From a virus: a DNA stretch of 64,000 bases. Each line of letters opens with the position of its first letter. The stretch's first letter is position 1. Where the stretch lies: IMG/VR virus record IMGVR_UViG_3300024180_000005, positions 1-64,000 of that record. The stretch is one strand, 5' to 3'. Shown here piece after piece: positions 1 through 63,825 of the stretch. The notes beneath the pieces are model-generated. The model searched no databases. It saw only the letters and a list, made by a program, of their open reading frames with translations, and was not told the DNA's origin. Position numbers and translations under genes: made by a program.

Positions 1-190
1 CTATATTTTTAAAATACTCTTTTCTTGCTTTTGATATTTTCTCAATTCTCTCTAAATAACCATCACTATTTTTCTGTTCTAATTGTGAGCAATTTCTACA
101 AATAACTGAATTTTTAATCGCTCTATTTAGATTTGATTTACTTTTATATGTTAGTTCTTTATTACATTTTGGACAATTTCTAATATACAT
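1..190 (-). CDS. Partial zinc-ribbon protein (CPKC...CRNC), probably the N-terminus of a homing endonuclease-like gene; runs off the window
   Basis: ATG at 190 reads MYIRNCPKCNKELTYKSKSNLNRAIKNSVICRNCSQ... open to the window edge; TAATATATA box 4 nt upstream (195-203, minus strand). Confidence 0.6.
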   Translation of the reverse strand, partial: MYIRNCPKCNKELTYKSKSNLNRAIKNSVICRNCSQLEQKNSDGYLERIEKISKARKEYFKNI

Positions 191-1113
191 TAAGTATATA
201 TTAAAAAGTCTTTTCTATATTTAAGTAGCGCAATATCTTTTTGTTTACACTCCAATTCCGTGTCAAATTCAAGACCATATGTTTGAATTTCTTCATAAAT
301 GTAATCTGCATGTGCCGTATTTTTACCTGATGTATCTTCTAATGTTTTTGGTGAACTCATATGAGTCATAGGTTTTACATCACCCCATGTTGAACAAGCT
401 AATTTTAAAGCCTCTTCTTGTGAAATATCCTTAGGTCCATAATTGTGATGATGAAAATCGTGAGTTATTGGTATTCCAATTTCTTTATGTATCAAATCAT
501 ATAACATTTTTGTAGAATATTGATTTGGACCATCATCATTTTCCACAACTAATCTCTTTCTACAAGATTCACTTAAATTATAGAATTGTTTGCAAAATCT
601 TTCTGCGGCCTCTTCTCTAGTTGGTTTTGTTGTATTTACGTGTATATTTATAGGATAATAATGTGTTTGATCCAGACCCATTAAATCCATTATTTGTGCA
701 TGTTTATCTAATTCATCAATTGCATTTTCAACAACAACTGGATTTTCACTAGCAGGTATACAAAAATGTGTAGGATGAAATGATAATCTCATATCAACAC
801 TTTTGGCATAATCACCAATCTCTTTTAATTTTTTTGAAATCAAATCAAACTTTGGTAGATCCTCTAATTTATAGAAGCCAATACAGGGAAGTATATCACT
901 AGACATTCGATATACGAATATGTCATTTTCTTTATTCCATTTTATTATCTTAAACATATCATCTATATTTAAGAGAGCCAACTCGGTAACATATTGAAGA
1001 CCTTTACTCTCAAAAGTTTTTTTGATCATTCCTCTATTTACGGTAATGAAATCTTTCTTTTTCTTACCGTCATTTATCGAGATGTTTATACAACAATATC
1101 CTACTCTATTCAT
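190..1113 (-). CDS. uvsE: UV DNA damage endonuclease UvsE
   Basis: GYCCIN, YRMSS, RLSFHP, INIHV, RLVVENDD, HDFHHH, HADY, ECKQKD motifs of the UvsE/UVDE family. Confidence 0.92.
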   Translation of the reverse strand: MNRVGYCCINISINDGKKKKDFITVNRGMIKKTFESKGLQYVTELALLNIDDMFKIIKWNKENDIFVYRMSSDILPCIGFYKLEDLPKFDLISKKLKEIGDYAKSVDMRLSFHPTHFCIPASENPVVVENAIDELDKHAQIMDLMGLDQTHYYPINIHVNTTKPTREEAAERFCKQFYNLSESCRKRLVVENDDGPNQYSTKMLYDLIHKEIGIPITHDFHHHNYGPKDISQEEALKLACSTWGDVKPMTHMSSPKTLEDTSGKNTAHADYIYEEIQTYGLEFDTELECKQKDIALLKYRKDFLIYT

Positions 1114-1137
1114 TTTTTTAAATTATTTTTTAAATTA

Positions 1138-2181: not shown

Positions 2182-2190
2182 TAATATATA
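2182..2190 (+). promoter_or_regulatory. Putative late promoter box TAATATATA, 4 nt before ATG
   Basis: Recurrent motif with fixed spacing; resembles T4 late promoter TATAAATA. Confidence 0.7.
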
Positions 2191-2194
2191 ATAT

Positions 2195-2746
2195 ATGAAG
2201 ATTAGAAAATTTATAGAGTTCATAACAGAAGAATTGAATGATACTCCAGAGTCTTATATAGAGACTGCATTAAAGCAACTACAAAATAAGATAGGAAAGA
2301 TGTTTGAGGATCAAATAGAAATGGAAGATGAAAGAGAGGGTAATATTTCCATAGAAGATGCGAAGTCAAATTCAAAAGGTAAAAAAATTAGTTTTAAGGA
2401 TTTAGGAGTTCAATTGGAAAGTTCTGAGATATCTAAATATTCAAAATTATATGACTCACTTACTATAAAATTTAGTGATAGTAATTCAACATATAACATG
2501 TTACTTTTAATAGATTTAAAAGATGCGATGCCAAAGGATCCAGATAAAGATTTCTCATATAAAGATATCGAATCTTGTTTCATTAAGTTTAAAAAGTATG
2601 ATTTACAAACATTTGAGGTTATAGGGCAAATGACAAAGAATGTTAAGATTAAAGATATCGATGAAGAATTTTTAGTGGATCTTAAAATTGAACTTGATGA
2701 AGATTTTAGTGATGATGATGAAAAACTTGAAATAGAGACTGAATAA
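2195..2746 (+). CDS. Acidic hypothetical protein with CTS-like N-terminus (MKIRKFIEFITEE)
   Basis: ORF, late box, downstream terminator. Confidence 0.75.
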   Translation: MKIRKFIEFITEELNDTPESYIETALKQLQNKIGKMFEDQIEMEDEREGNISIEDAKSNSKGKKISFKDLGVQLESSEISKYSKLYDSLTIKFSDSNSTYNMLLLIDLKDAMPKDPDKDFSYKDIESCFIKFKKYDLQTFEVIGQMTKNVKIKDIDEEFLVDLKIELDEDFSDDDEKLEIETE

Positions 2747-2772: not shown

Positions 2773-2805
2773 GTTAGGAAACTAAATATTAATAATAAAT
2801 AGTAT

Positions 2806-3312
2806 ATGAGTGTAAATATAGTAACAAATTTTCAAATAATAAATAAAATAAAAAAATCTAGATATTTTAGAACTAATCTAGGTTTAGTAGCAACTGTTGA
2901 TAAAAATGGTTCTAGAAAGTATAATGATAAAGATTCTTTCTCAATGTTCTATAACTCACTTTATAACACTATAATATATGCACAGGGTAATATAGGTAAT
3001 ATAAAATTCTATACCGACCATTTCATACGTGATGAAGTTATGGCAGTTTATTTTGGAGATAACTTTGAAGAGTTTATATTCGATTGGGATGAAACTATTT
3101 TCAAAGAAAAAGGTATGGATTTTTATCTCGGACATATATTAAAAGAGGTTGAAACTAAATATGAGGAAAAATTATTAAAGGATGATTTAAAGAAAATTGA
3201 AGAAAAACCATTAGGTAATCCTGATTTAATATCACAGAACCCTGGTTCTGTATCATATGCTGACATACAGGCATATTTAGAAAAGAAAAGAAAAGAGAGG
3301 TATTCAGGTTAA
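2806..3312 (+). CDS. Hypothetical protein
   Basis: 168-aa ORF; TAATAAATA 4 nt upstream (2793-2801). Confidence 0.75.
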   Translation: MSVNIVTNFQIINKIKKSRYFRTNLGLVATVDKNGSRKYNDKDSFSMFYNSLYNTIIYAQGNIGNIKFYTDHFIRDEVMAVYFGDNFEEFIFDWDETIFKEKGMDFYLGHILKEVETKYEEKLLKDDLKKIEEKPLGNPDLISQNPGSVSYADIQAYLEKKRKERYSG

Positions 3313-3551
3313 TTATAGAGTATAGATGCTAAATATAAATAAACTAAGTATTTATCTTCTTTATCTAAATCATCAAAATCGTAACTAAGTTCTATATCCT
3401 CATCTTCTTGAAAGATATTTAGATATATCTTATTATCTTCCTTTACATACTCTATAGAATTAAATGTTGCTATACCAAGATCTAAGTCGATTATTAACTC
3501 AGTCAATCCAATACCCATTATACGGATCATCTTAGTAACCTTTCTTTTCAT
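3309..3551 (-). CDS. Hypothetical protein
   Basis: ORF; TAATATATA 4 nt upstream on minus strand (3556-3564). Confidence 0.7.
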   Translation of the reverse strand: MKRKVTKMIRIMGIGLTELIIDLDLGIATFNSIEYVKEDNKIYLNIFQEDEDIELSYDFDDLDKEDKYLVYLYLASILYN

Positions 3552-3643
3552 TATTTATATATTAAATAAAAGTAGATTTTTTTTTAGGAAGTGTCTTTTT
3601 GAATTGGTTTTTTAATATATACTAAAAAATAAATATTTTATTT

Positions 3644-4945
3644 ATGAATATACTTAAGTATGGTGATTATATCACAGAAAAGATGGCATACTCAATGATT
3701 TTAGAATCTAAGGTTGTACTTTCACAAAAGTTTATAAATCTTCTTACTAGAATGAAGAGTAATAATAAAATTGCCGCATCGATTTTAAGTTTTCAATCTA
3801 AGGATGTTGATGGTATTGCACAAAATTATATAGATTCAACAGATTCTAAAGAAGAATTATCTTTTACTCCGGATAGAAGAGTTCAACAGATGATAGAAGG
3901 TAAACCAGAATATTATAAAGTTACTAATTCAGGAAGATATCTTACACATAGTGATAGAAATAATAAAATATTCGAAAGACTTGGATATGATAAAGAAGGG
4001 AGATCCAATTGGGCACCAGATATGGGAACAATAGTAGAAATATTATCAGAAACACAAAGTAATGCTAGTAATAATACATATTGCATGGTTAAAGAAATAA
4101 ACCACACCGGTACTGAACCAAGAATTGGTGTAATAAACAAGGTAGCTATGCAAATTGATAGTGATGAATTCTTGGAAATATGGAAAACTGCTAGAAATCC
4201 TGTTAAAGTTGGTAGATTCGCTAGAGCATTTTTAACTAAGGCGAAAGTATCATTTACTGATCAAGATATTGAAGAGTTTGTAAATCAATACAAAGCAACT
4301 TATGACTTTGCCGCAGATATATTAAAACAATTTGATATTGTTCAAGGTTCTAAGATCACACACTGGTATTGGCATGAGAACTACCAAAATGGTGGTGGTA
4401 CTTTAAATAATTCTTGTATGTCCGAAGTAGATGAAGAGTGGCTTGATATTTATTCTCAAAATAATAATGTAAGTCTTGTTATTTTATATAATGATAATGG
4501 TGAGGTTAAGGATGGTAAATATGTTTCAAATTTAATAAAAGGTAGAGCCATTCTATGGGATTGTAAAATAGATGGGCAAAGTGCACAATTTATGGATAGA
4601 ATATACACAACACAAGATTCAGATGTAGTTCTTTTCAAACAATTTGCAGAGAAAAATGGTTGGTGGTATAAAACTGATCAATCTATGTCTCCTGAAGAGG
4701 ATATAACAAATGGTAGTTCTGTTAAAAGTGCAAAAATAGTAAGTGAATTGGGAAATTCTGACCTTCCTTATTTACCGTATATGGATACAATGTGTTTCAT
4801 AAATACAAGTAATGGAATAGTTGGTAACTCATTGAAAGTGGTAGATCCGGACAGAGAATTTGTAGATGATTATGAAGATTATGATGGTGCAATTAGAGTT
4901 GCCCGATCAACAGATGGTGAATGGTATACAGCTGACAACTACTAA
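3644..4945 (+). CDS. Uncharacterised phage protein (SCM / GRAxxW / FMDRIY / PYMDT motifs), paralog of 55620-57380, CTS-like N-terminus
   Basis: Colinear motifs shared with 55620-57380; starts MNILKYGDYITE. Confidence 0.8.
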   Translation: MNILKYGDYITEKMAYSMILESKVVLSQKFINLLTRMKSNNKIAASILSFQSKDVDGIAQNYIDSTDSKEELSFTPDRRVQQMIEGKPEYYKVTNSGRYLTHSDRNNKIFERLGYDKEGRSNWAPDMGTIVEILSETQSNASNNTYCMVKEINHTGTEPRIGVINKVAMQIDSDEFLEIWKTARNPVKVGRFARAFLTKAKVSFTDQDIEEFVNQYKATYDFAADILKQFDIVQGSKITHWYWHENYQNGGGTLNNSCMSEVDEEWLDIYSQNNNVSLVILYNDNGEVKDGKYVSNLIKGRAILWDCKIDGQSAQFMDRIYTTQDSDVVLFKQFAEKNGWWYKTDQSMSPEEDITNGSSVKSAKIVSELGNSDLPYLPYMDTMCFINTSNGIVGNSLKVVDPDREFVDDYEDYDGAIRVARSTDGEWYTADNY

Positions 4946-6398: not shown

Positions 6399-6791
6399 TT
6401 ATAGTATATTTAAAAATTTCAAATGTTGTTCTAACTTAGTATTATATTCAGAAAATGCTCCTTTTTTCAAATCTTCAAATGTTATCCATTTTACAACACC
6501 AGTTTCTTTGGTTGATATTTCACCTTCATAATCAGTTACTAAATAAACTGCAGCTACAAATTCACCATCTTCTCTTAAAAAGATTGGTATTGTGTTTTTT
6601 ATATCTAGACCGGTTTCTTCTCTTACTTCTCTTATAACACCTTCTTTCATACTTTCACCTACATCTACTTTACCACCCGGAAGTCCAAATGATGTAGAAT
6701 TATCTTTTCGAGATACTCCCAAAAGTTCTGTCTTATCTTCATTAAAGATAAGTGCAACTGCTGCTAGTTTTGCTTGTTTCGTTTCTATCAT
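6399..6791 (-). CDS. Nudix hydrolase (start likely ATG 6791)
   Basis: Nudix box GGKVDVGESMKEGVIREVREETG; TATATTTG box at 6809-6816. Confidence 0.9.
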   Translation of the reverse strand: MIETKQAKLAAVALIFNEDKTELLGVSRKDNSTSFGLPGGKVDVGESMKEGVIREVREETGLDIKNTIPIFLREDGEFVAAVYLVTDYEGEISTKETGVVKWITFEDLKKGAFSEYNTKLEQHLKFLNIL

Positions 6792-6819
6792 AAAGTATAT
6801 ATTACATACAAATATAAAA

Positions 6820-8787: not shown

Positions 8788-8869
8788 AAAAATATTTATG
8801 ACACCGAAATTTAATATATATATGAAAATATAATAGAAAGTTTATGATAGATTTCCTGTAAGGTTAGAT

Positions 8870-9207: not shown

Positions 9208-9292
9208 AATATTTACTTGATATGTCATACTATTATTATTTATAATACGTTATATTGATTAAAAGTTGTTTTGAAATAGTAATATATACTAT

Positions 9293-9577
9293 ATGTTCGA
9301 ATTTATAACTAAGTCTATTACAACATTTATCAATAAATTGATGAAATCATTTGGTGTACATGATGATGGATTCAGTGCGAGGAAAATGACCGCATTTATT
9401 GTTGTTTTACTTATAGTATATACTCATTACAAATGGTTGAAATCTTGTTACAGTAATAATGACTTCGGTTTATTGCCACAAGTATTGATGATTGATTTTA
9501 CTGCATTACTAACCTTATTGGGTTTAACAACCTGGGAAAAGATTAAAACTATGCAAAGTGATAAAGATAAGAAATAA
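9293..9577 (+). CDS. Two-TM membrane protein (holin-like topology)
   Basis: Two hydrophobic helices, charged C-terminus, late box 9280-9288. Confidence 0.6.
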   Translation: MFEFITKSITTFINKLMKSFGVHDDGFSARKMTAFIVVLLIVYTHYKWLKSCYSNNDFGLLPQVLMIDFTALLTLLGLTTWEKIKTMQSDKDKK

Positions 9578-9721: not shown

Positions 9722-9923
9722 CTTCCCATTCTTTTTTTGATATAGACATAGTTGATTTATTAAAGTGTTTATGTGCATCATTTTGCTCTTTTGTTCCTCG
9801 ATTGAAGTTCCAAAACTTTGCAACTTCAGAAGAACATTGTAGTATGACAATTAGTCCACCACCATCTGTTCTGTAAAGGTACTCTCCACAGAGAGAGCAC
9901 CTGTACTTTTCAATCTTAGTCAT
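9702..9923 (-). CDS. Small Cys-containing hypothetical protein
   Basis: RCSLCG; packed downstream of the RNA ligase. Confidence 0.6.
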   Translation of the reverse strand: MTKIEKYRCSLCGEYLYRTDGGGLIVILQCSSEVAKFWNFNRGTKEQNDAHKHFNKSTMSISKKEWEDEIKKF

Positions 9924-9933
9924 AAACTATATA

Positions 9934-11145
9934 TTAATCTTCGTTTTCGTCTTCTGGTACATCTATAAAGAAAATAGAGGCATCTCTTTCTTTCAAAAAT
10001 TCTCTGGCGATTTTCAACTTTCTTGTTTGATCGGATACCCAATCTTTTGCTAAGTCATAGACATCAGTGTTTCCTTTTGATAAAGACATAACGTATCCAA
10101 AGTTTCTTTCTTTTCTATATTTCAAGGCGAAAGTCTTTCTCATTAGTTGTAATCTTAAATCTCCAGTCCAGTCTTTACCTACACCACCTTCAATAAACAA
10201 CTCATAAGATTCATTTATATCTTTTACTTTTTCAGAAACAGCGTGTTTTACAACAGCTATTATCTTTTCGATTCTAGCATGTGCCTCTACTTCTTCTTCT
10301 GGTATTTGACCTAAAATATCATCGATTTTTTCATCCAAAACATATCTAACCAAAACATGTTCTCTATATAAGTCATTAGTCAATAAACCATGTCTCTCAC
10401 AATACCAAGATGTTTTAATCTTTATGAAAAGACCGTTCGTAAATTCTATGATCCATCCTTCTTTATCTTCTACTTTATTAGACATTTCAATAATCTCATC
10501 TAATGAATAAGTATAAGATGGTGCAACTTTCAAAGTGCCTATTTCTTTAGAGAATTTAGATAAGTCTAAATATTCACCAGTTTTATTATCTCTTAATCTT
10601 AGTAAAATCAATTCTTCATCTAAGTATCTTAAAACGATTCTATTATTTGGTGCAACATATTCAAATATAGCAACATAATCGTTATCTAAAGACCAGTCTA
10701 CGAATCTTTTCAAATCCGTGTTTGATTTATATAATCTATTCATACCCAATGCTTGATCAGACTCGAAAGACATTTTAGATTTACCTAAAACAGAACCATT
10801 TGGTAATCTTACGAAAGATGCGATGGAACCATCTTCTTTGTTATAGATTGATTTTATTTTTAAATCCTCAACTAAAGAATATTGAGACTCCGCAACTTGG
10901 TTTAAGTTAAAGAATTTGTGTAGTAATAAATATCTTTTGAATAAAGAACCATCCTTGTTAAAAACATACGTCAATCCCCTCATTTCGAATGCCAAGTTGT
11001 CTATGAAGTCAGAATATTGTGCAAGTCTATAGTTGAATATAGATACATTATACCCATCAATCACAAACTTTGATTCATAGAATGTTGAATCTATACCTAA
11101 AGTAAGTGTAGCCGCTTCGTCATATGATAATAAGTATCTTTCCAT
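9934..11145 (-). CDS. T4 Rnl1-like RNA ligase
   Basis: EMRGL, KFFNLN, motif I KEDGS, FEYVAPNNRIV, EGWII, KIK. Confidence 0.9.
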   Translation of the reverse strand: MERYLLSYDEAATLTLGIDSTFYESKFVIDGYNVSIFNYRLAQYSDFIDNLAFEMRGLTYVFNKDGSLFKRYLLLHKFFNLNQVAESQYSLVEDLKIKSIYNKEDGSIASFVRLPNGSVLGKSKMSFESDQALGMNRLYKSNTDLKRFVDWSLDNDYVAIFEYVAPNNRIVLRYLDEELILLRLRDNKTGEYLDLSKFSKEIGTLKVAPSYTYSLDEIIEMSNKVEDKEGWIIEFTNGLFIKIKTSWYCERHGLLTNDLYREHVLVRYVLDEKIDDILGQIPEEEVEAHARIEKIIAVVKHAVSEKVKDINESYELFIEGGVGKDWTGDLRLQLMRKTFALKYRKERNFGYVMSLSKGNTDVYDLAKDWVSDQTRKLKIAREFLKERDASIFFIDVPEDENED

Positions 11146-11170: not shown

Positions 11171-11195
11171 AGAAATTTATTTTAATATATAATAT

Positions 11196-11840
11196 ATGAA
11201 GTATATAAAACAGTTTGAAAACTTTCTAATAAATGAGGGTAGGTATGATAAAATAAGTAATGAGATATCATCTAGTATATTTAATCACTGGAAAAATGAT
11301 TTTTTATCAGGTGAAGTGGAATCTACTTTTGAAGATACTTTTGAAAATAAAGATTTGTATATCGACATAGTAGCAGTTATTAACTTTTCAAAGGATTATG
11401 AGAAAGGTTTAACTATTGATGCTGGTGCTGATGAATCAACTAATTATATTGAAGTTTGTTTTGAGGTAAACCCAGATTTACTCCCAAGATTTTGGCAAGA
11501 AATATCTATGAATTTAAAAGATGTTATTAGACATGAAATTGAACATCTTACACATGGAGATGGTGAAAACTTAAACCCATATAAAAAAATGGAAGATGAT
11601 AGATTCATAAGAGATATGATTTCTGCAAAGATTTTACCTAAATCCATGTATTTTAAGTTGGAAAAAGAAATAGATGCTAATCTACAGGGAATGTATTTTA
11701 GAGCAAAAAAAGAACACAAACCACTTTCAGATATAATCAACCAATATTTAGATTTACAAGATATTACAATTGATGAGAAGAATGATATACTAGATCTTTG
11801 GAGAAAGAGGGCAGAGATTCTTAATCTACCTAATTTTTAA
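11196..11840 (+). CDS. HExxH putative metalloprotein with CTS-like N-terminus (MKYIKQFENFLINE)
   Basis: RHEIEH...EIDA zincin-like motif; late box 11183-11191. Confidence 0.7.
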   Translation: MKYIKQFENFLINEGRYDKISNEISSSIFNHWKNDFLSGEVESTFEDTFENKDLYIDIVAVINFSKDYEKGLTIDAGADESTNYIEVCFEVNPDLLPRFWQEISMNLKDVIRHEIEHLTHGDGENLNPYKKMEDDRFIRDMISAKILPKSMYFKLEKEIDANLQGMYFRAKKEHKPLSDIINQYLDLQDITIDEKNDILDLWRKRAEILNLPNF

Positions 11841-11852
11841 GATATATACGAT

Positions 11853-12362
11853 ATGAGTAGAAAATCTTCAATAAATAAAATTAAGAGAGATAACTCTAAA
11901 TCTAAAAGTATAGAGGCCGCTATGTGTATGTATCTATATGAGAAATCACATTCACCAATCACAACCAGATTTACAGGAATGGGTCTTCAAGAGTGTGATG
12001 TAATATCTATATCAAAATCTGATTATATATATGAGTATGAGATTAAGACAAGTAGAGCGGATTTTAAAAAGGATTTTATTAAAGAGAAACACACACATAT
12101 AATAAATGAGAAATATACAAAAACTATTAAAGGTGAGTTAGTTTATTTATTACCAAACTATTTTAGTTTTGTTACACCAAGAGATTTGATAACTGTAGAT
12201 GAAGTTCCTGATTATGCTGGTTTAATCTATATGAATGAGGATTCTTCCTTTGAAGTCATAAAGAAACCAAAGTTATTACATAAGACTAAGGCAAATGAAG
12301 AGTTCATACGAAAGTTGGCACACAACCTAAGCTGCAAGCTTATTTTCAATAAAATAGTTTAG
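11853..12362 (+). CDS. PD-(D/E)XK nuclease-fold protein (MmcB-like)
   Basis: ECDVI...EYEIKTSRADFKKD...PNYFSFVTP...VPDYAGLI. Confidence 0.75.
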   Translation: MSRKSSINKIKRDNSKSKSIEAAMCMYLYEKSHSPITTRFTGMGLQECDVISISKSDYIYEYEIKTSRADFKKDFIKEKHTHIINEKYTKTIKGELVYLLPNYFSFVTPRDLITVDEVPDYAGLIYMNEDSSFEVIKKPKLLHKTKANEEFIRKLAHNLSCKLIFNKIV

Positions 12363-21881: not shown

Positions 21882-23375
21882 TTAATCAATAGAGAAAAGA
21901 TATCCAAAATTACCCAGAACATTATATTTGAACTTGGCAACTCTCTTACCAGTTCCTGGACCGGATGAATATATAACATCTATTTTTGTACCATAAGAAT
22001 TTAAAGACATACTTGCACCAGCAGTTGGATTTATCCATTGATATTGATTTGATGGATTTTTTATAGGTGTACCACCTTTATATAAATCAACATTCAAAAT
22101 TACCAAAGGTGTTGAATCAAGTCTTGTTTGATCACCCATTACGAAATTGGGTACCCAAGATCCAACATACCAATGTGCCTTTGCTTCTATTTCTATTTCA
22201 GATTGACCAGGATAATAATATTTAAAGGCATTTAAATTTATTAAAACGGTTTCATATCCAAATCCAGTATTATCATCAGCATGCCATAATATCGAATAAG
22301 TAGAACTTTGTGGATGTGTTGGGAAATCGGGCGTCCAACCACTACCAACATAGTAGGCACCATATCCAGATTCAGATGCAGGCTCATCAGGGTAAACCAT
22401 TGTAGTCCTAGTATCCAAATCAACCTCACCCGAAAATTGATAAGTCATAATTATATAATCTGCATCAAAATTAAATGATATTTGAGAGTCATCTGCAATT
22501 CTAAAAGGTCTAACCTTTGCAAAATTGGATTTAAATATAGCGGCTATATCTAAATTTCGAATAGAACTTGTACCGGCTAAAACACCCCATGAAGTTGATG
22601 CGCTATTCTCCGTAGAAGACCAATAATAATCAGAATCATTTGATGAAACTAATCCCGTGTCTGTGTAACTACCACCAGGACCAGTATCGGTTGTTTCATT
22701 TTTCGTGTATTTAGTTTTACCAAAGGTTAAAAGATTTATATTACTTGGTAATACTGAATCTGTTGTGTATGTATATTCAGGAAATGTAGGTAGTACCGTA
22801 ATATTAACAACATCTAATTTAGGTTCATTTTTATCATATGAGAAACTATCTAAAACTTTATTGAAAATAGAAGCATTGTTTATTAAATAATTAAGTTCAT
22901 ATATAGATGGTAGAAACCAATCATCCCATACTCCTGTTCCTAAGTCCGGATTAGAATAGTCTAAACATAATTGTGCTGCCGATGTTGTGGATTGTGTGCT
23001 TATTAGTAAACTATTACTCGCACCAAATGAATTATAACTAGCAGATGCTGATAAATTCTGTATATCAGACCATTCAAAGCCATAAATAAATGAGGTTACT
23101 CCACTTGAAACAACAGTAGTTGATATATTTTCAGTAGCCGCGATAAGACATCTTTCTAAACCATTTTCAGTCCATACTCCAACTACAACACCACCACCAA
23201 AAAACTCACCAATATAATGATTATTTGGCTTATCGGAAACATAATCAGTTATTGTTTTCCAATTTGAATAACCATTCCCATCTGATATAAGTACTTTATC
23301 AGATGATTGTCCACCATCCTGAATAATTAGATTTTTATTTATAGTAAAGTTTGTTCTATTAATTGAATGTCCCAT
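21882..23375 (-). CDS. Virion protein with DUF1566-type domain
   Basis: HYIGEFFGGG...WFLPSIYEL...YWSSTE...VRPFR; GAATATATA box 4 nt upstream. Confidence 0.75.
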   Translation of the reverse strand: MGHSINRTNFTINKNLIIQDGGQSSDKVLISDGNGYSNWKTITDYVSDKPNNHYIGEFFGGGVVVGVWTENGLERCLIAATENISTTVVSSGVTSFIYGFEWSDIQNLSASASYNSFGASNSLLISTQSTTSAAQLCLDYSNPDLGTGVWDDWFLPSIYELNYLINNASIFNKVLDSFSYDKNEPKLDVVNITVLPTFPEYTYTTDSVLPSNINLLTFGKTKYTKNETTDTGPGGSYTDTGLVSSNDSDYYWSSTENSASTSWGVLAGTSSIRNLDIAAIFKSNFAKVRPFRIADDSQISFNFDADYIIMTYQFSGEVDLDTRTTMVYPDEPASESGYGAYYVGSGWTPDFPTHPQSSTYSILWHADDNTGFGYETVLINLNAFKYYYPGQSEIEIEAKAHWYVGSWVPNFVMGDQTRLDSTPLVILNVDLYKGGTPIKNPSNQYQWINPTAGASMSLNSYGTKIDVIYSSGPGTGKRVAKFKYNVLGNFGYLFSID

Positions 23376-23397
23376 TATCTATATATTCAAAAACCAA

Positions 23398-23520: not shown

Positions 23521-23595
23521 AGATAAAATAGAGCTGGAGACTATGTTTATTTTATGTATTGTAGATTTAATATATATAAGAAACTAATATTTAAT

Positions 23596-24378
23596 ATGAG
23601 TGATGAATACATACCATATCAAGGAGGTCTTACAATTGAAGAGTTTATTGATAGTGTCAATACTGAACTAACAATAGGTTGTTCTTTACCAAAGACATTA
23701 CCAGATGCTATGATTAGGCAAATTGTCGAAAAAAGAGCAATGCCTTGGTTTTATAGAACTTATCAATATGCAGTTCAAAAAATGTATTTCTTGGTTAAGA
23801 AAGATGCATTCACTAGTGAAGAGTTTACAAAATATAATTATGTTAGTGTTCCTTGTGAAATACAATCAGTTACATATTTATATGAAGTAAGAGGAACTAG
23901 TCTTTTCCAATTAGGTATAAATAGTCCTAACTTATCTGTAAACTTAGGGGTTACAAATCAACCATATTTATCGTCATATGTAACAACAATTGGTGAGTTA
24001 GGTACTTATAAAACATTATTAGATAATATGTCTGATATGATGAACCAATTAAATAAATATACTCTTAAATATCAATTTAACCAGTTAAATCATAGATTAC
24101 ATATTTTAACAAATGTTGAATATGATGTGATTATGGAAGCATATGCTAATATACCACCGGAAAACCTTTACAACGATGATTTGTTTTTCAAATATTGTGT
24201 AGGATATGCAAAACAAGCATTAGGGAATATGGTGGGAAGATATGATTTTTCTCTTCCCGGTGGTGTTAAGATACAAGCAGCAGACTTGGTTTCTCAAGGG
24301 AAAGAAGAGGTTAAAGAAGTTGAAGAGGAAGTGAAAGGTCAAAGTAATTCAAGTTTCTTTTTCATGGTTAAGAAATAA
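23596..24378 (+). CDS. T4 gp13-like neck (head-tail adaptor) protein (start likely ATG 23596)
   Basis: YQFNQLNHRLHI...AKQALG...LPGGVKI...GKEEVKEVEE pattern typical of gp13; TAATATATA at 23568-23576. Confidence 0.75.
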   Translation: MSDEYIPYQGGLTIEEFIDSVNTELTIGCSLPKTLPDAMIRQIVEKRAMPWFYRTYQYAVQKMYFLVKKDAFTSEEFTKYNYVSVPCEIQSVTYLYEVRGTSLFQLGINSPNLSVNLGVTNQPYLSSYVTTIGELGTYKTLLDNMSDMMNQLNKYTLKYQFNQLNHRLHILTNVEYDVIMEAYANIPPENLYNDDLFFKYCVGYAKQALGNMVGRYDFSLPGGVKIQAADLVSQGKEEVKEVEEEVKGQSNSSFFFMVKK

Positions 24379-24443
24379 CCAATTGATTATCAATAAGTTA
24401 TTTTCAATATTAGGAAATAGTTATGAAATTTAATATATAAAAA

Positions 24444-26377: not shown

Positions 26378-26409
26378 ATTACAAACATACGGACAAATTT
26401 TAATATATA

Positions 26410-28235: not shown

Positions 28236-28356
28236 ATTGTATATATAAGCCATAACATCTCTCCTATAAAAGAAAGCCAGTATTGTTTAATATAATTTAA
28301 CATTAAAATAATAAACAAATAAGTTAAAAAAATATATATAACTTAAATAAAAATTT

Positions 28357-34542: not shown

Positions 34543-34586
34543 GTTTCAAATATATAACAGGGTATACCACTTTTAATATATAAAAT

Positions 34587-37998: not shown

Positions 37999-38049
37999 TA
38001 GCGAGAGGTTTTCTTTTTTTATATATAATAAAAAGATTTCAACTCTCAA

Positions 38050-39987
38050 ATGGCTAAAATTTCAAAATATGTTAAGTTAGATAGAGATATATTATTAGAA
38101 TATATCTATAATGATGGTAACATGATTAGTGACCAGTATAAAATACTGGTTGACTCAAGAGATAACAGAAGATCGTATATAGCAGGAGACTTAAGTGGTA
38201 CAGGTAATACAAATATTAAAGGTCAAGAGAATCAACTTTTTAAGTTAGATTCTGTTTCTGGAAAATATGGTATCGTAAACCCAGATTATTACTCATATCT
38301 TCAGTATAAAGAATTTTCTTCTAGTATTCCTGTTAGACATGATACTATTAAAGTTCATATACCAATAAATTGGACTTTTGGTGAACACTTAGGTTTCTAT
38401 ATCAGAGTTTATACTTTAGATGAGACCAATACAAACCCATTTGAGATTTCCAATTTCTATTTTGATATGACAAATGTTTCTCAGCAATATTTGTTAAACT
38501 ATTCTACACCACCTTTATTATTTCAAGAAAAACTTTGGGGAAAAACTATAGAAATAGAGGTTCCGGCTATAAATGAAATCGCAACTCAAAAAGTTGATGG
38601 TAGTCCAAAAGAAGATAGTATAAATTACAACCTTACAAATGGTATCGGTTTGAGTATAACTGCACCAATTTTTATCGACTTTTTCTTCATTGATGGTATA
38701 CAAAAAGTTAATGGTATATCAACATACATACTTGCAGGAAAAGTAACAACTACAATCCCACAAACTCCAGAATTTGAAAGATTAGGTCTTGTTGTAAAAC
38801 ACTCGACGGAAGGGGACTTTTTTGAAATTCACGGAACCTATAATGATAATATTGCAGAATTCAAAAAGTTCATAGATGATTCATTTACTATGGGACATAG
38901 ATACTATGTACAATATAACATAACAACATATGAACAAAATATTCGTGGGAAAACAACAACTGTAACTGTTCATGATGGTTTTAATGAAACAATAGAATAT
39001 AGACCAATTATAAAATTTTCTACTACAACCGCAATAATAGATGTTGAGATGAGACTTATCGATTCTGTTGATGATTCGTATATTCTAAGGAGAGCATCAT
39101 ATGGTATGTTACAAGATGAAGTTTCTAAATATAGTACAAATATGTTAAAAATAAATTTAACAAATGCCACAAAGCCTAAAATCTATAATGTTAAAAATGC
39201 AATTGATGCATCTTTACTAGGTGTTACTAACGCAATGGGTAGGACTACAACACCAAGAGGTAGAACAAATAATATGGCATCAAGTGGTGCAGGATTCAAT
39301 GTTGGTATAGCAGTAAATAAAGGTGACTTAGGAAGTGGAAATAGTTTTGGTGCAGGTGTTGGTAATAATGGTGGTGTATTTGGTGGTAATTCTAATACTA
39401 CACAAGTACAAACAATAAAGGTTCCTTATCCAGTCCTTGTAGATAAATTTAACATAATAGGTAAATCAGAAAATTCTGTTTTTAATAATAATACCTTCTA
39501 TGGAAATGCAAAAATGCAAATAAAGATATACCCATTTGATAATATAATTAAATTTATAATTGCATCGGGTGATCCATTGAAGCCAGACTATTTAGATATG
39601 ACAGGTTTAGGTGAGATAAAACTTGTTTTTAAAAATGATAACACAACACAGGAGTTTCCATTGATGATAGAATCAAGTGATATAAATCTTAAATTAGGAC
39701 AAATTGTGTTTAAATTACCACAAAGTAAAGTTTTAAGTGTTAAAAAGATATATGAATCAGGTGTAAATATATTTTATATAACATCATTTAATCAGGGAAA
39801 TACTTCTGTAGTTTATACTGGATTATATCAAATATTTGATAATCTTAAAAATGTTTCAGATCTTAATAAAGATTCTGTGGTAGTTGGTAATTCGGCTATA
39901 AATCAAGATCCTAAATTACCTAGAGAAACCGCAGTGGTTACTAGAAAATTAATAACAAGTGAAACGGCACCTACTAAAAAGGGTTAG
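38050..39987 (+). CDS. Large hypothetical, probably structural, protein
   Basis: 645 aa, beta-rich, Gly/Asn linker, adjacent to gp3-like gene. Confidence 0.7.
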   Translation: MAKISKYVKLDRDILLEYIYNDGNMISDQYKILVDSRDNRRSYIAGDLSGTGNTNIKGQENQLFKLDSVSGKYGIVNPDYYSYLQYKEFSSSIPVRHDTIKVHIPINWTFGEHLGFYIRVYTLDETNTNPFEISNFYFDMTNVSQQYLLNYSTPPLLFQEKLWGKTIEIEVPAINEIATQKVDGSPKEDSINYNLTNGIGLSITAPIFIDFFFIDGIQKVNGISTYILAGKVTTTIPQTPEFERLGLVVKHSTEGDFFEIHGTYNDNIAEFKKFIDDSFTMGHRYYVQYNITTYEQNIRGKTTTVTVHDGFNETIEYRPIIKFSTTTAIIDVEMRLIDSVDDSYILRRASYGMLQDEVSKYSTNMLKINLTNATKPKIYNVKNAIDASLLGVTNAMGRTTTPRGRTNNMASSGAGFNVGIAVNKGDLGSGNSFGAGVGNNGGVFGGNSNTTQVQTIKVPYPVLVDKFNIIGKSENSVFNNNTFYGNAKMQIKIYPFDNIIKFIIASGDPLKPDYLDMTGLGEIKLVFKNDNTTQEFPLMIESSDINLKLGQIVFKLPQSKVLSVKKIYESGVNIFYITSFNQGNTSVVYTGLYQIFDNLKNVSDLNKDSVVVGNSAINQDPKLPRETAVVTRKLITSETAPTKKG

Positions 39988-40055: not shown

Positions 40056-40655
40056 ATTCGTCTTTCCAGTCAGTCCTCCCAATTTGTCTTTAATTTACCG
40101 CAAGATTTCTTAAAGCCAGAAACTATAGATACATATCAACCCGTCTTAGAGAAGAATTGGGTACAATATGAGAATGTTATAGATTATCTTAATTCTACTA
40201 TTAAGTCTGTTAATTTTCCAGGAATATCATTTGATATGCCAAAGCAAATATTAATGAGAGGTAAAGAAAGACAATTTAAACCTGCACAAAATGTTCAAGA
40301 TATAACAACAACTCATGAGTTGACTGTTACATTTAGATCAGTAGATGCCGATTTAAATTATTGGCTTATGTTTGATGTATTGACTAAACATTACCTTGAT
40401 GTTGAAAACGCATTCTTAAATCCATTTACTATAACTTGTGTAGATATACATAGGGACGCATTATATGTGATAAGATTTTATGAGATTATATTAAAATCTT
40501 TGTCGGATAATACCTTTAATTATTCACAACAAAAAGTTGTTGCTAAAGACTTTACAATGACCTTCCACTTTAATTTCTATGATATAGAGTTTATCTTGGA
40601 TAAGAGTAAGGTTCTGGAACTTGGTGCATTACCTCAGATTATTCAACGTCTTTAA
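40056..40655 (+). CDS. T4 gp3/tail-tube-like protein; frame open 66 codons upstream of ATG 40236 with no ATG/GTG/TTG
   Basis: IRLSSQSSQFVFNLP...IKSVNFPGISF...ELTVTFRSVDADLNYW resembles the gp3 family S-x-N-x-PG-x-S...L-x-x-x-F...D...NY pattern. Confidence 0.6.
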   Translation: MRLSSQSSQFVFNLPQDFLKPETIDTYQPVLEKNWVQYENVIDYLNSTIKSVNFPGISFDMPKQILMRGKERQFKPAQNVQDITTTHELTVTFRSVDADLNYWLMFDVLTKHYLDVENAFLNPFTITCVDIHRDALYVIRFYEIILKSLSDNTFNYSQQKVVAKDFTMTFHFNFYDIEFILDKSKVLELGALPQIIQRL

Positions 40656-40812
40656 TCTTATTATAAAGTTTATCAATAGAGTTCTTTCTTTTCCAAGATT
40701 TTGAAGAAGCCATATTCTGAATATTTTTTATTATATCAGCATCTATGTTCTTTGCGAGTTCTTCAGAAAGAATCTTCAGAAGTTCATCTTCTACGTTTAT
40801 GTTATCTTTCAT
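40639..40812 (-). CDS. Unannotated 57-aa protein resembling a major-capsid (gp23) helix
   Basis: MKDNINVEDELLKILSEELAKNIDADIIKNI...KRKNSIDKLYNKIKDVE*; ATG overlaps the acetyltransferase stop. Confidence 0.65.
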   Translation of the reverse strand: MKDNINVEDELLKILSEELAKNIDADIIKNIQNMASSKSWKRKNSIDKLYNKIKDVE

Positions 40813-50237: not shown

Positions 50238-50301
50238 ATAATCTTATATATATGAAGAATAGAAAGTTTAATATATACAGAAAGGAAAACAATAAAATAC
50301 A

Positions 50302-51235
50302 ATGGATATAATAGTTAGATTAAAAAACCATAATACTAAACTATCAATTTCTAATTTAGAATTATATAAAAATGATAGTTCTAAACTAAATTTTAGATGT
50401 GAGTGTGGTTATGAATGGTCTGCAGTATACAGAGATATATTGAGATCAAAAAGAAATAATGGTTGTGTAAAATGTCAAAAAAGAAGTAAATCTGAAAGAG
50501 TATATACTTTATCAAATGATGTTTATTTAAAAAGAGTTAATGAATATTGGGGGGGATAAGATTGAAGTTTTGGAAGAGTATAAAAAGGGAGAAGATAAAA
50601 TTAAAATTTTATGTAAAGTTTGTGATAATGTATGGAATCCAACTGCTAGATCATTATTGAGAGGAAACGGATGTCCAAAATGTGGACATGAGAAAACAAA
50701 ATTATCTCGTATTAAAAGTAATGAAAAATATTTAGAAGAGTTGAAATATGTTCATGATGATAGAATAACTTTAATCGATAAATATATTAATAGTAATACA
50801 AAAGTTAATTTCAAGTGTTGTTTGTGTGATAATACATGGTTAGCCAATCCTAACATGATATTAAGAGGAAGAGGTTGTCCAAAGTGTAAATTTTCCAAAG
50901 GTGAGTTATTAATTTCAAAATTATTAAAAGATATAGATATAGAATTTAAGGAACAATTTATTATAAAAGGATTAAAAACTAACAAAGGTGGTACACCTAG
51001 ATTTGATTTCGCAATTTTTGAAAACAATGTTTTAACAAAAATTATTGAATATGATGGAATTTTACATTTTGAACCTGTTAATAAATTTGGAGGATTAAAA
51101 AGACTAAAAGAACAAAAAGAAGTTGATGATTTTAAAAATAAATATTGTATCAAAAATAATATTAAAATGATAAGGATACCATATTATGACATTTCAAAAA
51201 TAGACATTGAATATCTAAAAAATAAAATTATTTGA
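50302..51235 (+). pseudogene. Zn-ribbon-repeat PD-(D/E)XK/Vsr-like endonuclease split by a G7 run at 50549-50555
   Basis: Removing one G fuses 50302-50559 and 50540-51235 (...NEYWGDKIEV...); three CxxC..W...GCxKC repeats, SKGE, RFDF, IEYDGILH, IRIPY. Confidence 0.8.
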
Positions 51236-52152: not shown

Positions 52153-52228
52153 AATACTATTTATAAAAAATTATGTTTTGTGTTTTAAAAATAGTAAAAT
52201 TTAATATTACACATTTAATATATATGAT

Positions 52229-52663
52229 ATGAAATATTTAAGATTTTTTGAAGCAAAGGACGATTTGGAAAAAGACCATATACTAACTTCTTTAAAAGCA
52301 TATATGAAAGAGGTTGACAAAAACTGGAACTATATAACTCCACTAGATCTCAAAAAAGATTTGGACAAAGATCCGAATAAATACTTTCTACTTGATATAA
52401 GAAAACCAGAAGATTTCAATACTGGTCACATTAAAGGTTCAAAGAATATCTTTTGGAAAGAATTGCTTGAAAATTTAGACAAACTTCCTAAAGATAAAAA
52501 AATAGTTTTAATATGTTATGTTGGACATACATCAAGTCAAATGTTGATTTCTCTTCGCATGTTAGGATATGATGTTATATCATTGAAATTTGGAATGGGA
52601 GTTTCCCCAGTAGAAGGAGTGCCTGTTTCGGGGTGGCTTGATTATGGATTTCCTGTAAAATAA
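52229..52663 (+). CDS. Rhodanese-like protein with CTS-like N-terminus (MKYLRFFE)
   Basis: LLDIR...GHIKGSKNI...ICYVGHTS...GW; late box 52216-52224. Confidence 0.85.
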   Translation: MKYLRFFEAKDDLEKDHILTSLKAYMKEVDKNWNYITPLDLKKDLDKDPNKYFLLDIRKPEDFNTGHIKGSKNIFWKELLENLDKLPKDKKIVLICYVGHTSSQMLISLRMLGYDVISLKFGMGVSPVEGVPVSGWLDYGFPVK

Positions 52664-54281: not shown

Positions 54282-54764
54282 TTAAGTTAAAAATATGATT
54301 GAATCGTATTTTTCTTCCTCAGAAGGTGTTTGATATGAATCTATCATAGATTTTATAACAAATGGTGGTATCCATTTATTTTCATTGATATTCCTAATCT
54401 CATTTCTTTTATTATATTCTTCCTCGGATAATATTGGAAATACAACTGCAATACGTGAAAAGTTTTTATCAAAGTTATTCAAAGTTGATAGTCTTCTTTT
54501 AATAACCATATTAGTCATGTCTATAATAACATTCTCTTTTAAAGAATTTGCTTGTTTTAATCGTAATGATAGTACTCGATCGACTTCTTTGTGATCGACC
54601 TCTTTAAATGCTAAATTATAGTCTCTAGATCCAAAAACTTCCATTACTATCTCGTCACGAGATATAACTTTAGTATCTGAGTAATTTTGTTTTATGTATG
54701 TTGATTTGCCCGAAAGTGTAGGTCCAATCATGATCATAACAAATGGTTCTTTAATATTTTTCAT
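54282..54764 (-). CDS. AAA_33 / polynucleotide kinase-like P-loop protein
   Basis: GPTLSGKST, SRD, IIDMTN..RR, IP..VI..M...Y..P; TATCTTTG box 54769-54776. Confidence 0.85.
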   Translation of the reverse strand: MKNIKEPFVMIMIGPTLSGKSTYIKQNYSDTKVISRDEIVMEVFGSRDYNLAFKEVDHKEVDRVLSLRLKQANSLKENVIIDMTNMVIKRRLSTLNNFDKNFSRIAVVFPILSEEEYNKRNEIRNINENKWIPPFVIKSMIDSYQTPSEEEKYDSIIFLT

Positions 54765-54815
54765 AAATCAAAGATAAGTAATCTTTTTCGAATGAACAAA
54801 TTTAATATATAAAAT

Positions 54816-55613
54816 ATGAGTGGAATAGTAAGTAAACAAATTTTAAATAAAAACATTTTATTTTATTTCGATGCTGCAAATAAAAAATCATACGATGGTT
54901 TTAGTAATTTAGGATATAGTCTTGTTTTAGGGACAACCGCATCTTTATTAACCGGAGTTACCTGGAGTTCAAGTAATGTAGGAGTTATGAATTTCAATGG
55001 TACTTATTCAATCGGTTTAACAACATATGCGGTAGATTCATGGATTAGTTGTGGTGATAGAATACCTGTTATTGCACCAAGTTTCCCGATAACATTAGAA
55101 GCATGGATAAAACCAAGAAAACTTAATGGTGGGACAGGTCCTGTTACTCAAGGAATTTTTGCATTAGATTCTATGGAACAGTTTCCCGGAAATTATTATG
55201 GTGTTGAAATTGTAATAACTCCAAATGATGGTTCTGATACTATGAATTTAGGTGCTGGATATTATAATGGTAGTGGGTATGGTGTTGGTTCAAGAAGATC
55301 CGGGACTACTAGTATTAGACCTGTTATATGTGGTGTTTGGAATCATGTTGTTGCGGTGATTGCGGGTTTAAATGATATAAGATTATATGTAAATGGTGTT
55401 AGTGTTTCAAGTACACTTTCTGGTTCAGGCACGAGCTTAGTATGGAGTGGTGGTTTAGGTAAAACTGTTATAGGTAAAACTGCTGGCTACTATAAATATA
55501 TTTTTGATGGTGACATTGCGATGGTTAGAGCATATAATGAATCATTAAGTATTGATGATGTTAAAAGTCAATATAATCTACATACCATAAGATTTGGATT
55601 AAAATCAATATAA
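54816..55613 (+). CDS. LamG/ConA-like domain virion protein
   Basis: FDAANKKSY, TLEAWIKP, WNHVV, LYVNG, FDGDIAMVRAYN; late box 54803-54811. Confidence 0.8.
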   Translation: MSGIVSKQILNKNILFYFDAANKKSYDGFSNLGYSLVLGTTASLLTGVTWSSSNVGVMNFNGTYSIGLTTYAVDSWISCGDRIPVIAPSFPITLEAWIKPRKLNGGTGPVTQGIFALDSMEQFPGNYYGVEIVITPNDGSDTMNLGAGYYNGSGYGVGSRRSGTTSIRPVICGVWNHVVAVIAGLNDIRLYVNGVSVSSTLSGSGTSLVWSGGLGKTVIGKTAGYYKYIFDGDIAMVRAYNESLSIDDVKSQYNLHTIRFGLKSI

Positions 55614-61485: not shown

Positions 61486-61581
61486 AATATATCTTGTTTG
61501 TTTTACAAATATAAGGATAAAATAGTTATTCACAAAATTTAGAAAGATTTTAAATAGATTTTATTTTTTAATATATAACTT

Positions 61582-63825
61582 ATGAAAAAAAACTCTGATC
61601 TTTTAAATGGTACTATACAAATTTTTGATAAATTTGATATCACTGCAAGTAATGGTGATACTACAGAAACACCTACTTTCACAACAATTGGAAGTGAATA
61701 CATATTAAGTTTTACAAGTTTAGAAAAAGTTTTAAATTTTAAAACTTTTCGGTATGATACATTAGGAATGACTAGTAATAGATACTTAGAAAATTCTTAT
61801 AGAATTTCGAGGGATGGTAATAGTTGGACAGAATGGATGCCATTAAATAGAAATATTGACAACTTTCCTTTGATAGACCCTAATGATTTACTCTTCTTAG
61901 ATGTTAAATGGGTTAGATCAGGAAGTTCTGAGATTGGAACAATAAGAATTTTAGAATATTTTTTAGAAGGAGAACTTGATAGAAATGTAGTTGATGATGG
62001 TAGTGTAATTCAATTAAAACCAGGTAAAGAAGTAATAATGAAGGCACCTTATATATATAAGGTTTTTTCGGTAAGTGATATAGAAGTTATTTCTGGATAT
62101 GATTTAAGTAATGTGGTAATAAAATTTAGATATTCACAAGATAGTGAAAGAACATGGTCTAATTGGGAATTATTTACAAAAGAAAATATAATAACTACTA
62201 GGATAAATCCGATTAGATTTTTTCAGATAGAATATAGTATAGTAAATAATGGTACAACAAATGTTTCTATACAAGATGTTAATATAATTGGAGATATTCA
62301 AAATGTTAGTAATGATTATTTTAAAACAAATCTTATGGGTATAAGAGAGTGTTGTAAATCAAACTTAACAGGATATACTGATGAAAATGGAAATTGGGTA
62401 GAAGGAACTGGGGCTAATATAGGCTCACTTGGTAATTCATTATCTGGTGATTCTTGCACTACTGATAGTTCTTTACCAGTAATGTCTAGTGATGAAAAGG
62501 CAAACCTTTATAATCCATATCAACAAAATACTGCAATGGATCTTTTGAATAAGTTAAGTACTGATGCACAACAAGTTTTTGGACACGAAACTATATACTT
62601 TTGTACAGATCCTGATAAAAAAGGACAGGATCACACTATGCATGAGTATCAATTATTTAATGTTGTTTGTGAAGGTAATATAAAAGTATCTGTTGATGGT
62701 AATAATTTCCCGGATAGTCAAATAGTTATGAATCAATTTGATTTAAATTTATTTGAACAAATGGAAGTTCATATAACTAAAAAGGCATTTAAAGAAATAT
62801 TTGGACCTCAAAGAAGACCTTCAAAAGAAGACTTCTTATATTTCTGTAACCTTAATAGAATGTATCAAGTTGATCATGCACAACAATTTAGAAACTTTAA
62901 TAATTCTGCGGTTTATTATAAATTACATTTGAAAAAATACAGTCAAAAGGCAAATGTACAGGCTGGTACTCCGGATATTGCAGATACTTTAAAACAACTT
63001 ACTAATAATAGTACACTTGATTCTCTTATGGGTATCGAAAAAACTCAAGATAAAGCAGCAGTTGCAAATAAGGATCAATTAAAAACATTAAGTAAGGACC
63101 CAATAAGACTTGATTATAAGGTACAAATTGATAAAGAATTGATTGAAAACTCTAGTACAATAATATCAAAATCAAATTATGACATGGCATCAGTTGATTA
63201 TAGAACTACTGGTGTTAGTTATAAAAATTTAGATGCACAATTAAGAGTTTCCGATAATATAGGATATTATGTTTGGTTTAACATACATAATTATATACAA
63301 GGTGAGTTATATAACTTATTTAACTACTATGATGATGCTAATTCATTGGGTTGGAGAGCTGATATAATAGATGATGATATAGTATTTATGGCAAATGATA
63401 CTGAATATAAATTTCATTTAAAAGGAAATCCAACTAATGATGTTATTGCATTAGATGAAGATGTTTGGTATTGTTATGTGCTTAATGTTGACCAACGAAG
63501 TAGAGAATTATCACAGTGGATTTATAAAAGAGATATTTATGATGAATCTGCAGGTGGTTCTGCAATAAGTACCATTTTACAAAATGTTTATAAAGATACA
63601 CAAACTATTACACCTTTTGAATATCTTATTGAGGGTAATTATTGTAGTATATTAGGATCTGATATGAAAATAACAAATATTAGATTATTCTTAGATATTA
63701 TACCAGAAAGTTATCATAATAAAATATTGAATCAATATATAATAGGTGATGATTCTAAACATATGGTTTTCGCAGATAATGCGACCACTAGAATTTATCT
63801 ACCGAATTTTCCATATAACGAATAA
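61582..63825 (+). CDS. T4 gp14-like neck protein core with long N- and C-terminal extensions
   Basis: Central FGHETIYF...EY...EVHITKKAF...P..EDFLYF...MYQVDH...YYKLHLKKY pattern; late box 61569-61577. Confidence 0.7.
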   Translation: MKKNSDLLNGTIQIFDKFDITASNGDTTETPTFTTIGSEYILSFTSLEKVLNFKTFRYDTLGMTSNRYLENSYRISRDGNSWTEWMPLNRNIDNFPLIDPNDLLFLDVKWVRSGSSEIGTIRILEYFLEGELDRNVVDDGSVIQLKPGKEVIMKAPYIYKVFSVSDIEVISGYDLSNVVIKFRYSQDSERTWSNWELFTKENIITTRINPIRFFQIEYSIVNNGTTNVSIQDVNIIGDIQNVSNDYFKTNLMGIRECCKSNLTGYTDENGNWVEGTGANIGSLGNSLSGDSCTTDSSLPVMSSDEKANLYNPYQQNTAMDLLNKLSTDAQQVFGHETIYFCTDPDKKGQDHTMHEYQLFNVVCEGNIKVSVDGNNFPDSQIVMNQFDLNLFEQMEVHITKKAFKEIFGPQRRPSKEDFLYFCNLNRMYQVDHAQQFRNFNNSAVYYKLHLKKYSQKANVQAGTPDIADTLKQLTNNSTLDSLMGIEKTQDKAAVANKDQLKTLSKDPIRLDYKVQIDKELIENSSTIISKSNYDMASVDYRTTGVSYKNLDAQLRVSDNIGYYVWFNIHNYIQGELYNLFNYYDDANSLGWRADIIDDDIVFMANDTEYKFHLKGNPTNDVIALDEDVWYCYVLNVDQRSRELSQWIYKRDIYDESAGGSAISTILQNVYKDTQTITPFEYLIEGNYCSILGSDMKITNIRLFLDIIPESYHNKILNQYIIGDDSKHMVFADNATTRIYLPNFPYNE

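Follow-up and report, generated by a model that had tools for sequence, protein, structure and literature searches.

The late promoters of phage T4 consist of a TATAAATA box lying about one helical turn before the transcription start, and they are read by gp55 together with gp33 and the gp45 clamp (PMC2988020, PMC7892883). In the Thermus phage phiYS40, most middle and late messages lack a leader; IF2 rises and IF3 falls upon infection, and the leaderless messages are thought to profit from the changed host initiation machinery (Sevostyanova 2007, as summarised in PMC3594737). Validated leaderless genes of Deinococcus carry TANNNT 6-7 bp before the open reading frame (ORF) (PMC12340547), and primary-sigma promoters of Bacteroidota combine a -33 TTTG with a -7 TAnnTTTG element (PMC6847099). 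Phage phiKZ showed no leaderless transcript, and leaders in AR9 measure 26-491 nt. Here we examined a 64,000-nt stretch of viral DNA (positions 1 to 64,000 of IMG/VR record IMGVR_UViG_3300024180_000005; hereafter the window), in which the box TAATATATA stands exactly 4 nt before the ATG of many genes, a layout that we call N4. The layout is common to a whole clade of phages, the box is a promoter, and the messages of N4 genes probably begin at the AUG itself. To our knowledge, Bacteroidota, the phylum to which the host appears to belong, do without Shine-Dalgarno (SD) pairing, and how their ribosomes choose a start codon is still debated.

The window is the initial 64 kb of an 80,218-bp contig, a single viral fragment with 29% G+C and a CheckV completeness of 16%. 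The contig encodes the T4-type functions gp32, an Rnl1-type RNA ligase and a UvsX-like recombinase, and further genes for DnaK, a UvdE endonuclease, two large DUF7487/HNH nucleases and fibre-like proteins with Laminin_G_3 domains. The phage is T4-related, with a full genome likely near 0.5 Mb. An SD-like 4-mer was present upstream of just 6 of 109 genes, and the Bacteroidota-type -7 box TAnnTTTG was found ahead of many genes, mostly as TATATTTG or TATCTTTG; the scarcity of the former together with the frequency of the latter points to a host in the Bacteroidota. Scanning with gp32 recovered 69 related IMG/VR loci, on contigs that reach 483 kb. Four relatives (G001-G004) are 91-98% complete at 385-483 kb, and one of these, the 476-kb G001, was examined whole. 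Gene calls were crude, being made from a codon-bias score and the first ATG.

Over the whole contig, an ATG was found at spacer 4 after 14 of the 21 exact boxes, and each other spacer from 0 to 18 was used at most once. In 200 third-order Markov simulations, the mean number of N4 ATGs after an exact box was 0.22 and the maximum was 2. When one mismatch was allowed, 23 N4 sites were counted, compared with an expectation of 3.9 and a maximum of 9. All 14 exact N4 ATGs were the first in-frame ATG past the upstream stop, and they opened ORFs of 63-747 amino acids (aa). The first-pass annotation had listed 16 sites with this layout, and re-examination of the sequence found at every one of them what had been claimed: 12 are exact, those at 2806, 23375(-) and 28235(-) are one base off, and that at 11853 is either two bases off the box at N4 or one base off at N6. 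Two more exact N4 sites, at ATG 6791(-) and 9923(-), were absent from the list. The sequence of the 4-nt spacer varies, as had been described, though its final base is T in 11 of the 14 exact sites.

A genome-wide histogram of box-to-ATG distances had been proposed as a check on this spacing. The peak persisted, with its mode at 4, in the contig, in G001, at the 69 loci and in a pooled set of boxes. At the 69 gp32 loci, exact boxes with ATG at spacer 4 numbered 71 and those with ATG at spacer 5 numbered 34, and a second hump lay at 17-25. G001 contains 143 exact boxes, and spacers to a gene ATG were distributed as 4 (29 genes), 5 (16), 6 (6) and 7 (4), then were nearly nil until 14-30. An unbiased 9-mer count over positions -13 to -5 of ORF starts in G001 ranked TAATATATA at the top, with 27 sites compared with 10 for the next word. 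The pooled set comprised 403 unique boxes after duplicate removal, from about 2 Mb of relatives; spacers of 4, 5, 6, 7, 8 and 9 occurred 103, 44, 15, 9, 1 and 1 times, spacers of 0-3 and 10-12 did not occur, and a second group lay at 13-30 nt, densest at 17-25. The short-spacer class made up about 18% of all genes, in G000 as in G001. About half of the box-driven genes were leadered, with 14-30 nt between box and ATG, and the main virion genes were among them. For the 747-aa gene at ATG 61582, all 24 orthologues retained the box, at spacer 4 in most and otherwise at 5, 6, 7, 8 or 21-25. The protein encoded at 54816 was recovered at two loci in a metagenome scan, and the one locus covering the gene start (L121) had no upstream box. 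The N4 layout is not peculiar to this contig.

The box is a promoter rather than a translation element. At 26401-26497 (+), an exact box and 4 nt are followed by about 85 nt of non-coding RNA with an intrinsic terminator at its end, and a translation signal makes no sense at the head of a non-coding RNA. The unit recurs in 12 relatives: of the 11 pairs in the terminator stem, 8 show compensatory changes and none is broken, while the loop AAUUCGCU(A/C)CU does not vary. An Rfam search with the box and the small RNA gave no match to a known RNA family. A reading of the terminator loop as an anti-SD mimic was dropped because half of the relatives carry CUACU, not CUCCU. The information profile of 164 boxes contained no -35-like element; its only upstream signals were a T directly adjoining the box and, about 17 nt from it, a weak A-tract. 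Leadered boxes in G001 stood ahead of the portal gene (phrog_213, E 4e-59), two tail-fibre genes, a peptidase gene and a virion structural protein gene, and the gp23-like major capsid gene had the one-mismatch box TTATATATA with 24 nt; the UvsX gene of the contig carries GAATATATA with 23 nt. This promoter class is probably the late one. It is separate from the Bacteroidota primary-sigma type, since TAATATATA lacks the TTTG core of TAnnTTTG.

Similar to T4 late promoters, a lone A/T-rich -10 box without a -35 element stands ahead of virion genes, relatives encode a candidate gp55-family ORF, and the genomic setting includes gp32, UvsX, Rnl1 and gp23- and gp20-type head genes. The consensus differs, being TAATATATA here and TATAAATA in T4, and so does the spacing: an ATG lay 2-9 nt downstream of 4 of 32 TATAAATA boxes in T4, compared with 6 for a reversed-pattern control. 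The T4-style single-box late promoter put forward by the first-pass annotation is supported indirectly by the missing -35 element and by the position ahead of portal, capsid and fibre genes in relatives, but the layout is not specific to late genes, as described below for host-type promoters.

A gp55-like sigma factor had also been suggested as something to look for elsewhere in the genome, and a candidate was found in all four near-complete relatives but not on this contig. It is an ORF of 121-132 aa, compared with 185 aa for T4 gp55, and its only PHROG match was phrog_234 (T4 gp55), at E 4e-7 to 1.5e-5. A direct T4 gp55 homology search gave no match, and comparison of the relatives' ORF with solved structures gave none either. 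A phage multisubunit RNA polymerase of the phiKZ/AR9 type was rejected as the reader because the beta-type gene (Rpb2_6) had no match in five records.

Three independent lines place the predicted +1 at the fifth base after the box. The first is the left edge of the spacing distribution: spacers never fall below 4 and have their mode there, as would be expected if the AUG dropped out of the RNA at any shorter spacing. The second is an A signature. Leadered sites have A as their fifth base in 91% of cases in G001 and 84% in the pooled set, preceded by T or A, with positions 1-3 variable; the fifth base is also A after all 7 non-N4 exact boxes of the contig and a purine in the small-RNA homologues. 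A T directly precedes the ATG in 67-89% of short-spacer sites, compared with 54% of leadered genes.

The third line is calibration by host-type promoters. Transcription starts in Flavobacterium johnsoniae have been mapped to 4 or 5 nt past the -7 box TAnnTTTG (PMC6847099). For the same box in G001, spacers from 0 to 6 were counted 2, 3, 7, 2, 22, 10 and 4 times, with the peak of 22 genes at spacer 4. Clear host-type gene starts at spacer 4 in the window are those at 54764(-), where TATCTTTG and attt precede an ORF of 160 aa (54762-54776, box 54776-54769), and at 1885(-), where TATATTTG and taaa precede one of 148 aa (1883-1897, box 1897-1890). The 51-nt gap at 54765-54815 accommodates two promoters back to back, one host-type and one late-box. 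Because the host-type box peaks at spacer 4 and its start is known to lie 4-5 nt downstream, leaderless mRNA is the best reading of the layout, and early-type genes seem to be leaderless too. The shared spacing means that the layout is not restricted to late promoters, and the late-only scope given to it by the first-pass annotation was not borne out.

The phage promoters resemble Bacteroidota primary-sigma promoters in the 4-5 nt between box end and predicted start, and the phage uses genuine TAnnTTTG boxes as well. They resemble those of Deinococcus-Thermus in that a -10 element keeps a constant, close position relative to the ATG, which is the genomic signature of leaderless genes; the TAATAT within the box ends 7 nt before the ATG. 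Deinococcus-Thermus relies on a cellular housekeeping sigma, whereas the box here is phage-specific and belongs to a phylum in which 87% of mRNAs were leadered in one profiled species. Like phiYS40, this is a large lytic phage whose later genes would be expressed from leaderless messages; starts were mapped in phiYS40 and are predicted here. Unlike phiYS40, it belongs to another phage lineage, its host-type (early) promoters share the layout, and its main virion genes keep leaders; the host phylum of phiYS40 already uses leaderless messages widely.

The sequences show the motif, how its spacing is distributed, how it is conserved and what sorts of gene follow it; the start site, the reader protein and leaderless translation we infer as follows. 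TAATATATA would be the late-gene promoter of the present clade of T4-related Bacteroidota phages of 0.4-0.5 Mb, one A/T-rich box that occupies roughly -13 to -5, most likely read by the host RNA polymerase with a small phage gp55-like sigma. Transcription would begin at the fifth base after the box, so that an RNA whose ATG lies 4 nt past it would open with AUG and be translated leaderless. At spacers of 5-8 nt the start may slide to the A, or a leader of 1-4 nt would be left. The other half of the box-driven genes (capsid, portal, fibres) would carry A-rich leaders at a spacing of 14-30 nt. Host-type promoters would be used alike, which would make leaderless expression a general habit of the clade. 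We consider it probable, on this geometry, that N4 messages are leaderless, begin at AUG and are not confined to late genes. As first proposed, the idea concerned leaderless late mRNAs; the geometry favours it in setting the predicted start at the A of the ATG, but half of the box-driven genes are leadered.

A weak additional hint for leaderless use comes from position +4, which is A in 74% of short-spacer and 53% of leadered genes (p 2.6e-4); once genes with the N-terminal tag described below are removed, the figures are 61% and 43%. A at +4 has been proposed as a recognition base for the leaderless lambda cI message (PMC10491246).

Several observations weigh against leaderless initiation by this route. 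The A(+4) excess may stem from the kinds of protein encoded and not from recognition of the RNA, and the A-rich leader partly confounds the A seen at the fifth base of leadered sites. Since relatives also use spacers of 5-8 nt, either the start slides or 1-4 nt leaders are tolerated, and the messages need not all begin strictly with AUG. Leaders longer than 10 nt are carried by 87% of F. johnsoniae mRNAs (PMC6847099), so that efficient leaderless translation in the phylum is a supposition. As to the reader, the PHROG matches of the gp55-like ORF are weak, the gene was not found on this 16%-complete contig, and the relatives also encode a sigma-70-family factor that could read the box. The T4 clamp has no detected counterpart: none of five records matched the gp45 C-domain (Pfam gp45-slide_C) in a search in which the control genomes, too, stayed below the cut-off.

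The box could also be a promoter whose start falls elsewhere, for example within the box itself or 1-3 nt short of the ATG, giving very short leaders that enter ordinary Bacteroidota 30S initiation without SD pairing. Spacers of 5, 6, 7 and 8 are indeed found in relatives (44, 15, 9 and 1 of 403) and among the orthologues of a single gene, and initiation in Bacteroidota relies on A-rich, unstructured upstream sequence, not on SD pairing (PMC6847099). The distribution as a whole is harder to reconcile with such leaders, since spacers of 0-3 are absent and those of 8-12 nearly so, which fits a start at the fifth base with leaders of 4-8 nt disfavoured. The T before the ATG is frequent at any short spacer, as would be expected of a start that moves with the A, and the host-type box, whose start distance is known, likewise peaks at 4 nt. 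We regard this explanation as unlikely.

Much less probable is that the box acts in RNA, as a translation enhancer or an RNase processing site within a longer transcript begun further upstream. Its position is that of a ribosome-binding signal in a phylum that uses A/U-rich upstream signals, and several N4 genes lie inside same-strand runs (30276-32650). An RNA element at this position would not be expected 14-30 nt from the ATG, where the box lies in half of cases, or at the head of a non-coding RNA. Divergent pairs leave about 50 nt for both promoters (54765-54815), no conserved upstream element was found that could act as the real promoter, and a host DNA promoter box has equal spacing.

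A similarly slight chance attaches to inheritance of the spacing without selection, through copying of a cassette of promoter, start and tag MK[YH]LK..E.F ahead of many genes. Among pooled relatives, tag-like N-termini (MK[YH][LI]K..[EN].F) were far more frequent behind short spacers (50 of 171 genes) than behind leaders (5 of 132), and tagged genes stand in tandem at 30276-32650. Against copying, about 70% of short-spacer genes are untagged, the 4-nt spacers and first codons vary among sites, orthologue spacers drift yet never fall below 4, and a promoter type unrelated in sequence has equal spacing. Finally, TA-rich 9-mers are frequent at 29% G+C and about 11 exact boxes are expected from composition, but a chance pairing of such a word with ATG is refuted by the simulations (14 sites compared with 0.22 expected and never more than 2) and by the recurrence of the peak in the 69 related loci and the 476-kb relative.

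Tagged genes in the window include those at 2195, 11196, 30276, 32363 and 52229. The tie between tag and spacer may reflect late packaging cargo, copied cassettes or an effect of the 5' coding sequence on leaderless initiation.

Our literature search found nothing specific on this motif or on leaderless phage messages in Bacteroidota. If starts map to the AUG, this would be the first systematic leaderless expression in Bacteroidota phages within the literature searched. More than 100 natural promoter-AUG junctions with spacers of 4-8 nt would then be available for probing the Bacteroidota ribosome on a 5'-terminal AUG, and gene starts in huge-phage genomes could be corrected by the rule that the start is the ATG 4-5 nt past the box. 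The leaderless reading, if true, would also frame a testable link to the ribosomal proteins that these phages carry. It is testable now: the public runs containing the contig are seawater metagenomes and metatranscriptomes, and nine RNA runs contain the phage.

The individual N4 sites of the window are given here with coordinates that run from box to ATG. Near the left end, exact boxes precede a 63-aa ORF (188-203, minus strand, spacer ctta), a 183-aa ORF with the tag MKIRKFIEF (2182-2197, plus strand, atat) and an 80-aa ORF (3549-3564, minus strand, aata), and the one-mismatch box TAATAAATA with gtat precedes a 168-aa ORF (2793-2808, plus strand). At 6789-6804 (-), an exact box and cttt lead into 130 aa, and a host-type TATATTTG lies 4 nt upstream of that box. 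Exact boxes follow at 9280-9295 (+; ctat, 94 aa) and 9921-9936 (-; gttt, 73 aa). The RNA-ligase-like gene upstream (9934-11145) stops at the TAA of the latter box (9928-9936), and the gene at ATG 9923(-) begins 10 nt past that stop. At 11183-11198 (+), an exact box and atat precede 214 aa with the tag MKYIKQFENF. The site at 11838-11855 (+), ahead of 169 aa, reads as AGATATATA with cgat (two mismatches, N4) or as TAAGATATA with 6 nt; this box is likewise overlapped by the stop codon of the upstream gene.

Further along, GAATATATA with gata at 23373-23388 (-) precedes a 497-aa tail-fibre-like gene (21882-23375), which is followed by a 1407-aa virion-protein-like gene. An exact box with aaaa at 24431-24446 (+) precedes a 259-aa RNase T-type exonuclease, and TTATATATA with caat at 28233-28248 (-) precedes a 578-aa DUF7487/HNH-type nuclease, for which there is an alternative ATG 18 nt upstream of 28235. 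The remaining sites are all exact and on the plus strand: 30263-30278 (actt, 96 aa, tagged), 32350-32365 (aact, 95 aa, tagged), 34574-34589 (aaat, 653-aa DUF7487/HNH-type nuclease), 52216-52231 (tgat, 144 aa, tagged), 54803-54818 (aaat, 265 aa with a Laminin_G_3 domain) and 61569-61584 (actt, 747 aa). Three large HNH/homing-endonuclease-like paralogues each stand right behind a spacer-4 box, at 26499-28235 (-), at 34587-36548 (+) and, on the contig, at 73659-74894 (+); DUF7487 was recognized in two of the three.

Leadered boxes on the plus strand of the window include an exact box with a 22-nt A-rich leader before ATG 3644 (3613-3646; 433 aa), where the fifth base after the box is A, and exact boxes with leaders of 24 nt before ATG 50302 (50269-50304; 85 aa) and 19 nt before ATG 23596 (23568-23598; 260 aa). 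At 38019-38052, TTATATATA and a 22-nt leader precede ATG 38050 (645 aa), and the G001 orthologue has an exact box and 20 nt. An exact box at 8812-8820 (+), again with A as the fifth base, has no gene within 45 nt; dnaK and the gene at 9293 flank it, separated by a 550-nt gap. This orphan may head another small RNA or a mini-ORF.

The first-pass annotation had put forward, as a hypothesis, that leaderless messages could be favoured after a change in host translation. Ribosomal protein genes were present in the relatives. A bS21 protein of 65-72 aa, above the Pfam cut-off, is encoded in each of G001-G004 (loci L162-L165, L167-L170), as is a protein of 364-374 aa with two or more S1 domains. The contig's own S21-like stretch, at 76445-76573, is broken and below threshold. 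We consider it possible, although rather doubtful, that the clade runs about a fifth of its genes leaderless, from both promoter types, and pairs this with its own bS21 and S1-like proteins to bias ribosomes towards such messages. Translation would then be initiated through a second, phage-built channel, in a phylum where leaderless mRNAs are rare.

A lone tRNA-Gly (anticodon ACC) lies at 36558-36624 (+) in the window, directly 3' of the nuclease gene at 34587-36548. In G001, G002 and G004, several ORFs of 57-93 aa matched short pieces of Gp23 (Pfam), some above the cut-off, and G003 had two. These short ORFs stand beside a real gp23-type capsid gene of 560-590 aa, and 40639-40812 in the window may be compared with them.

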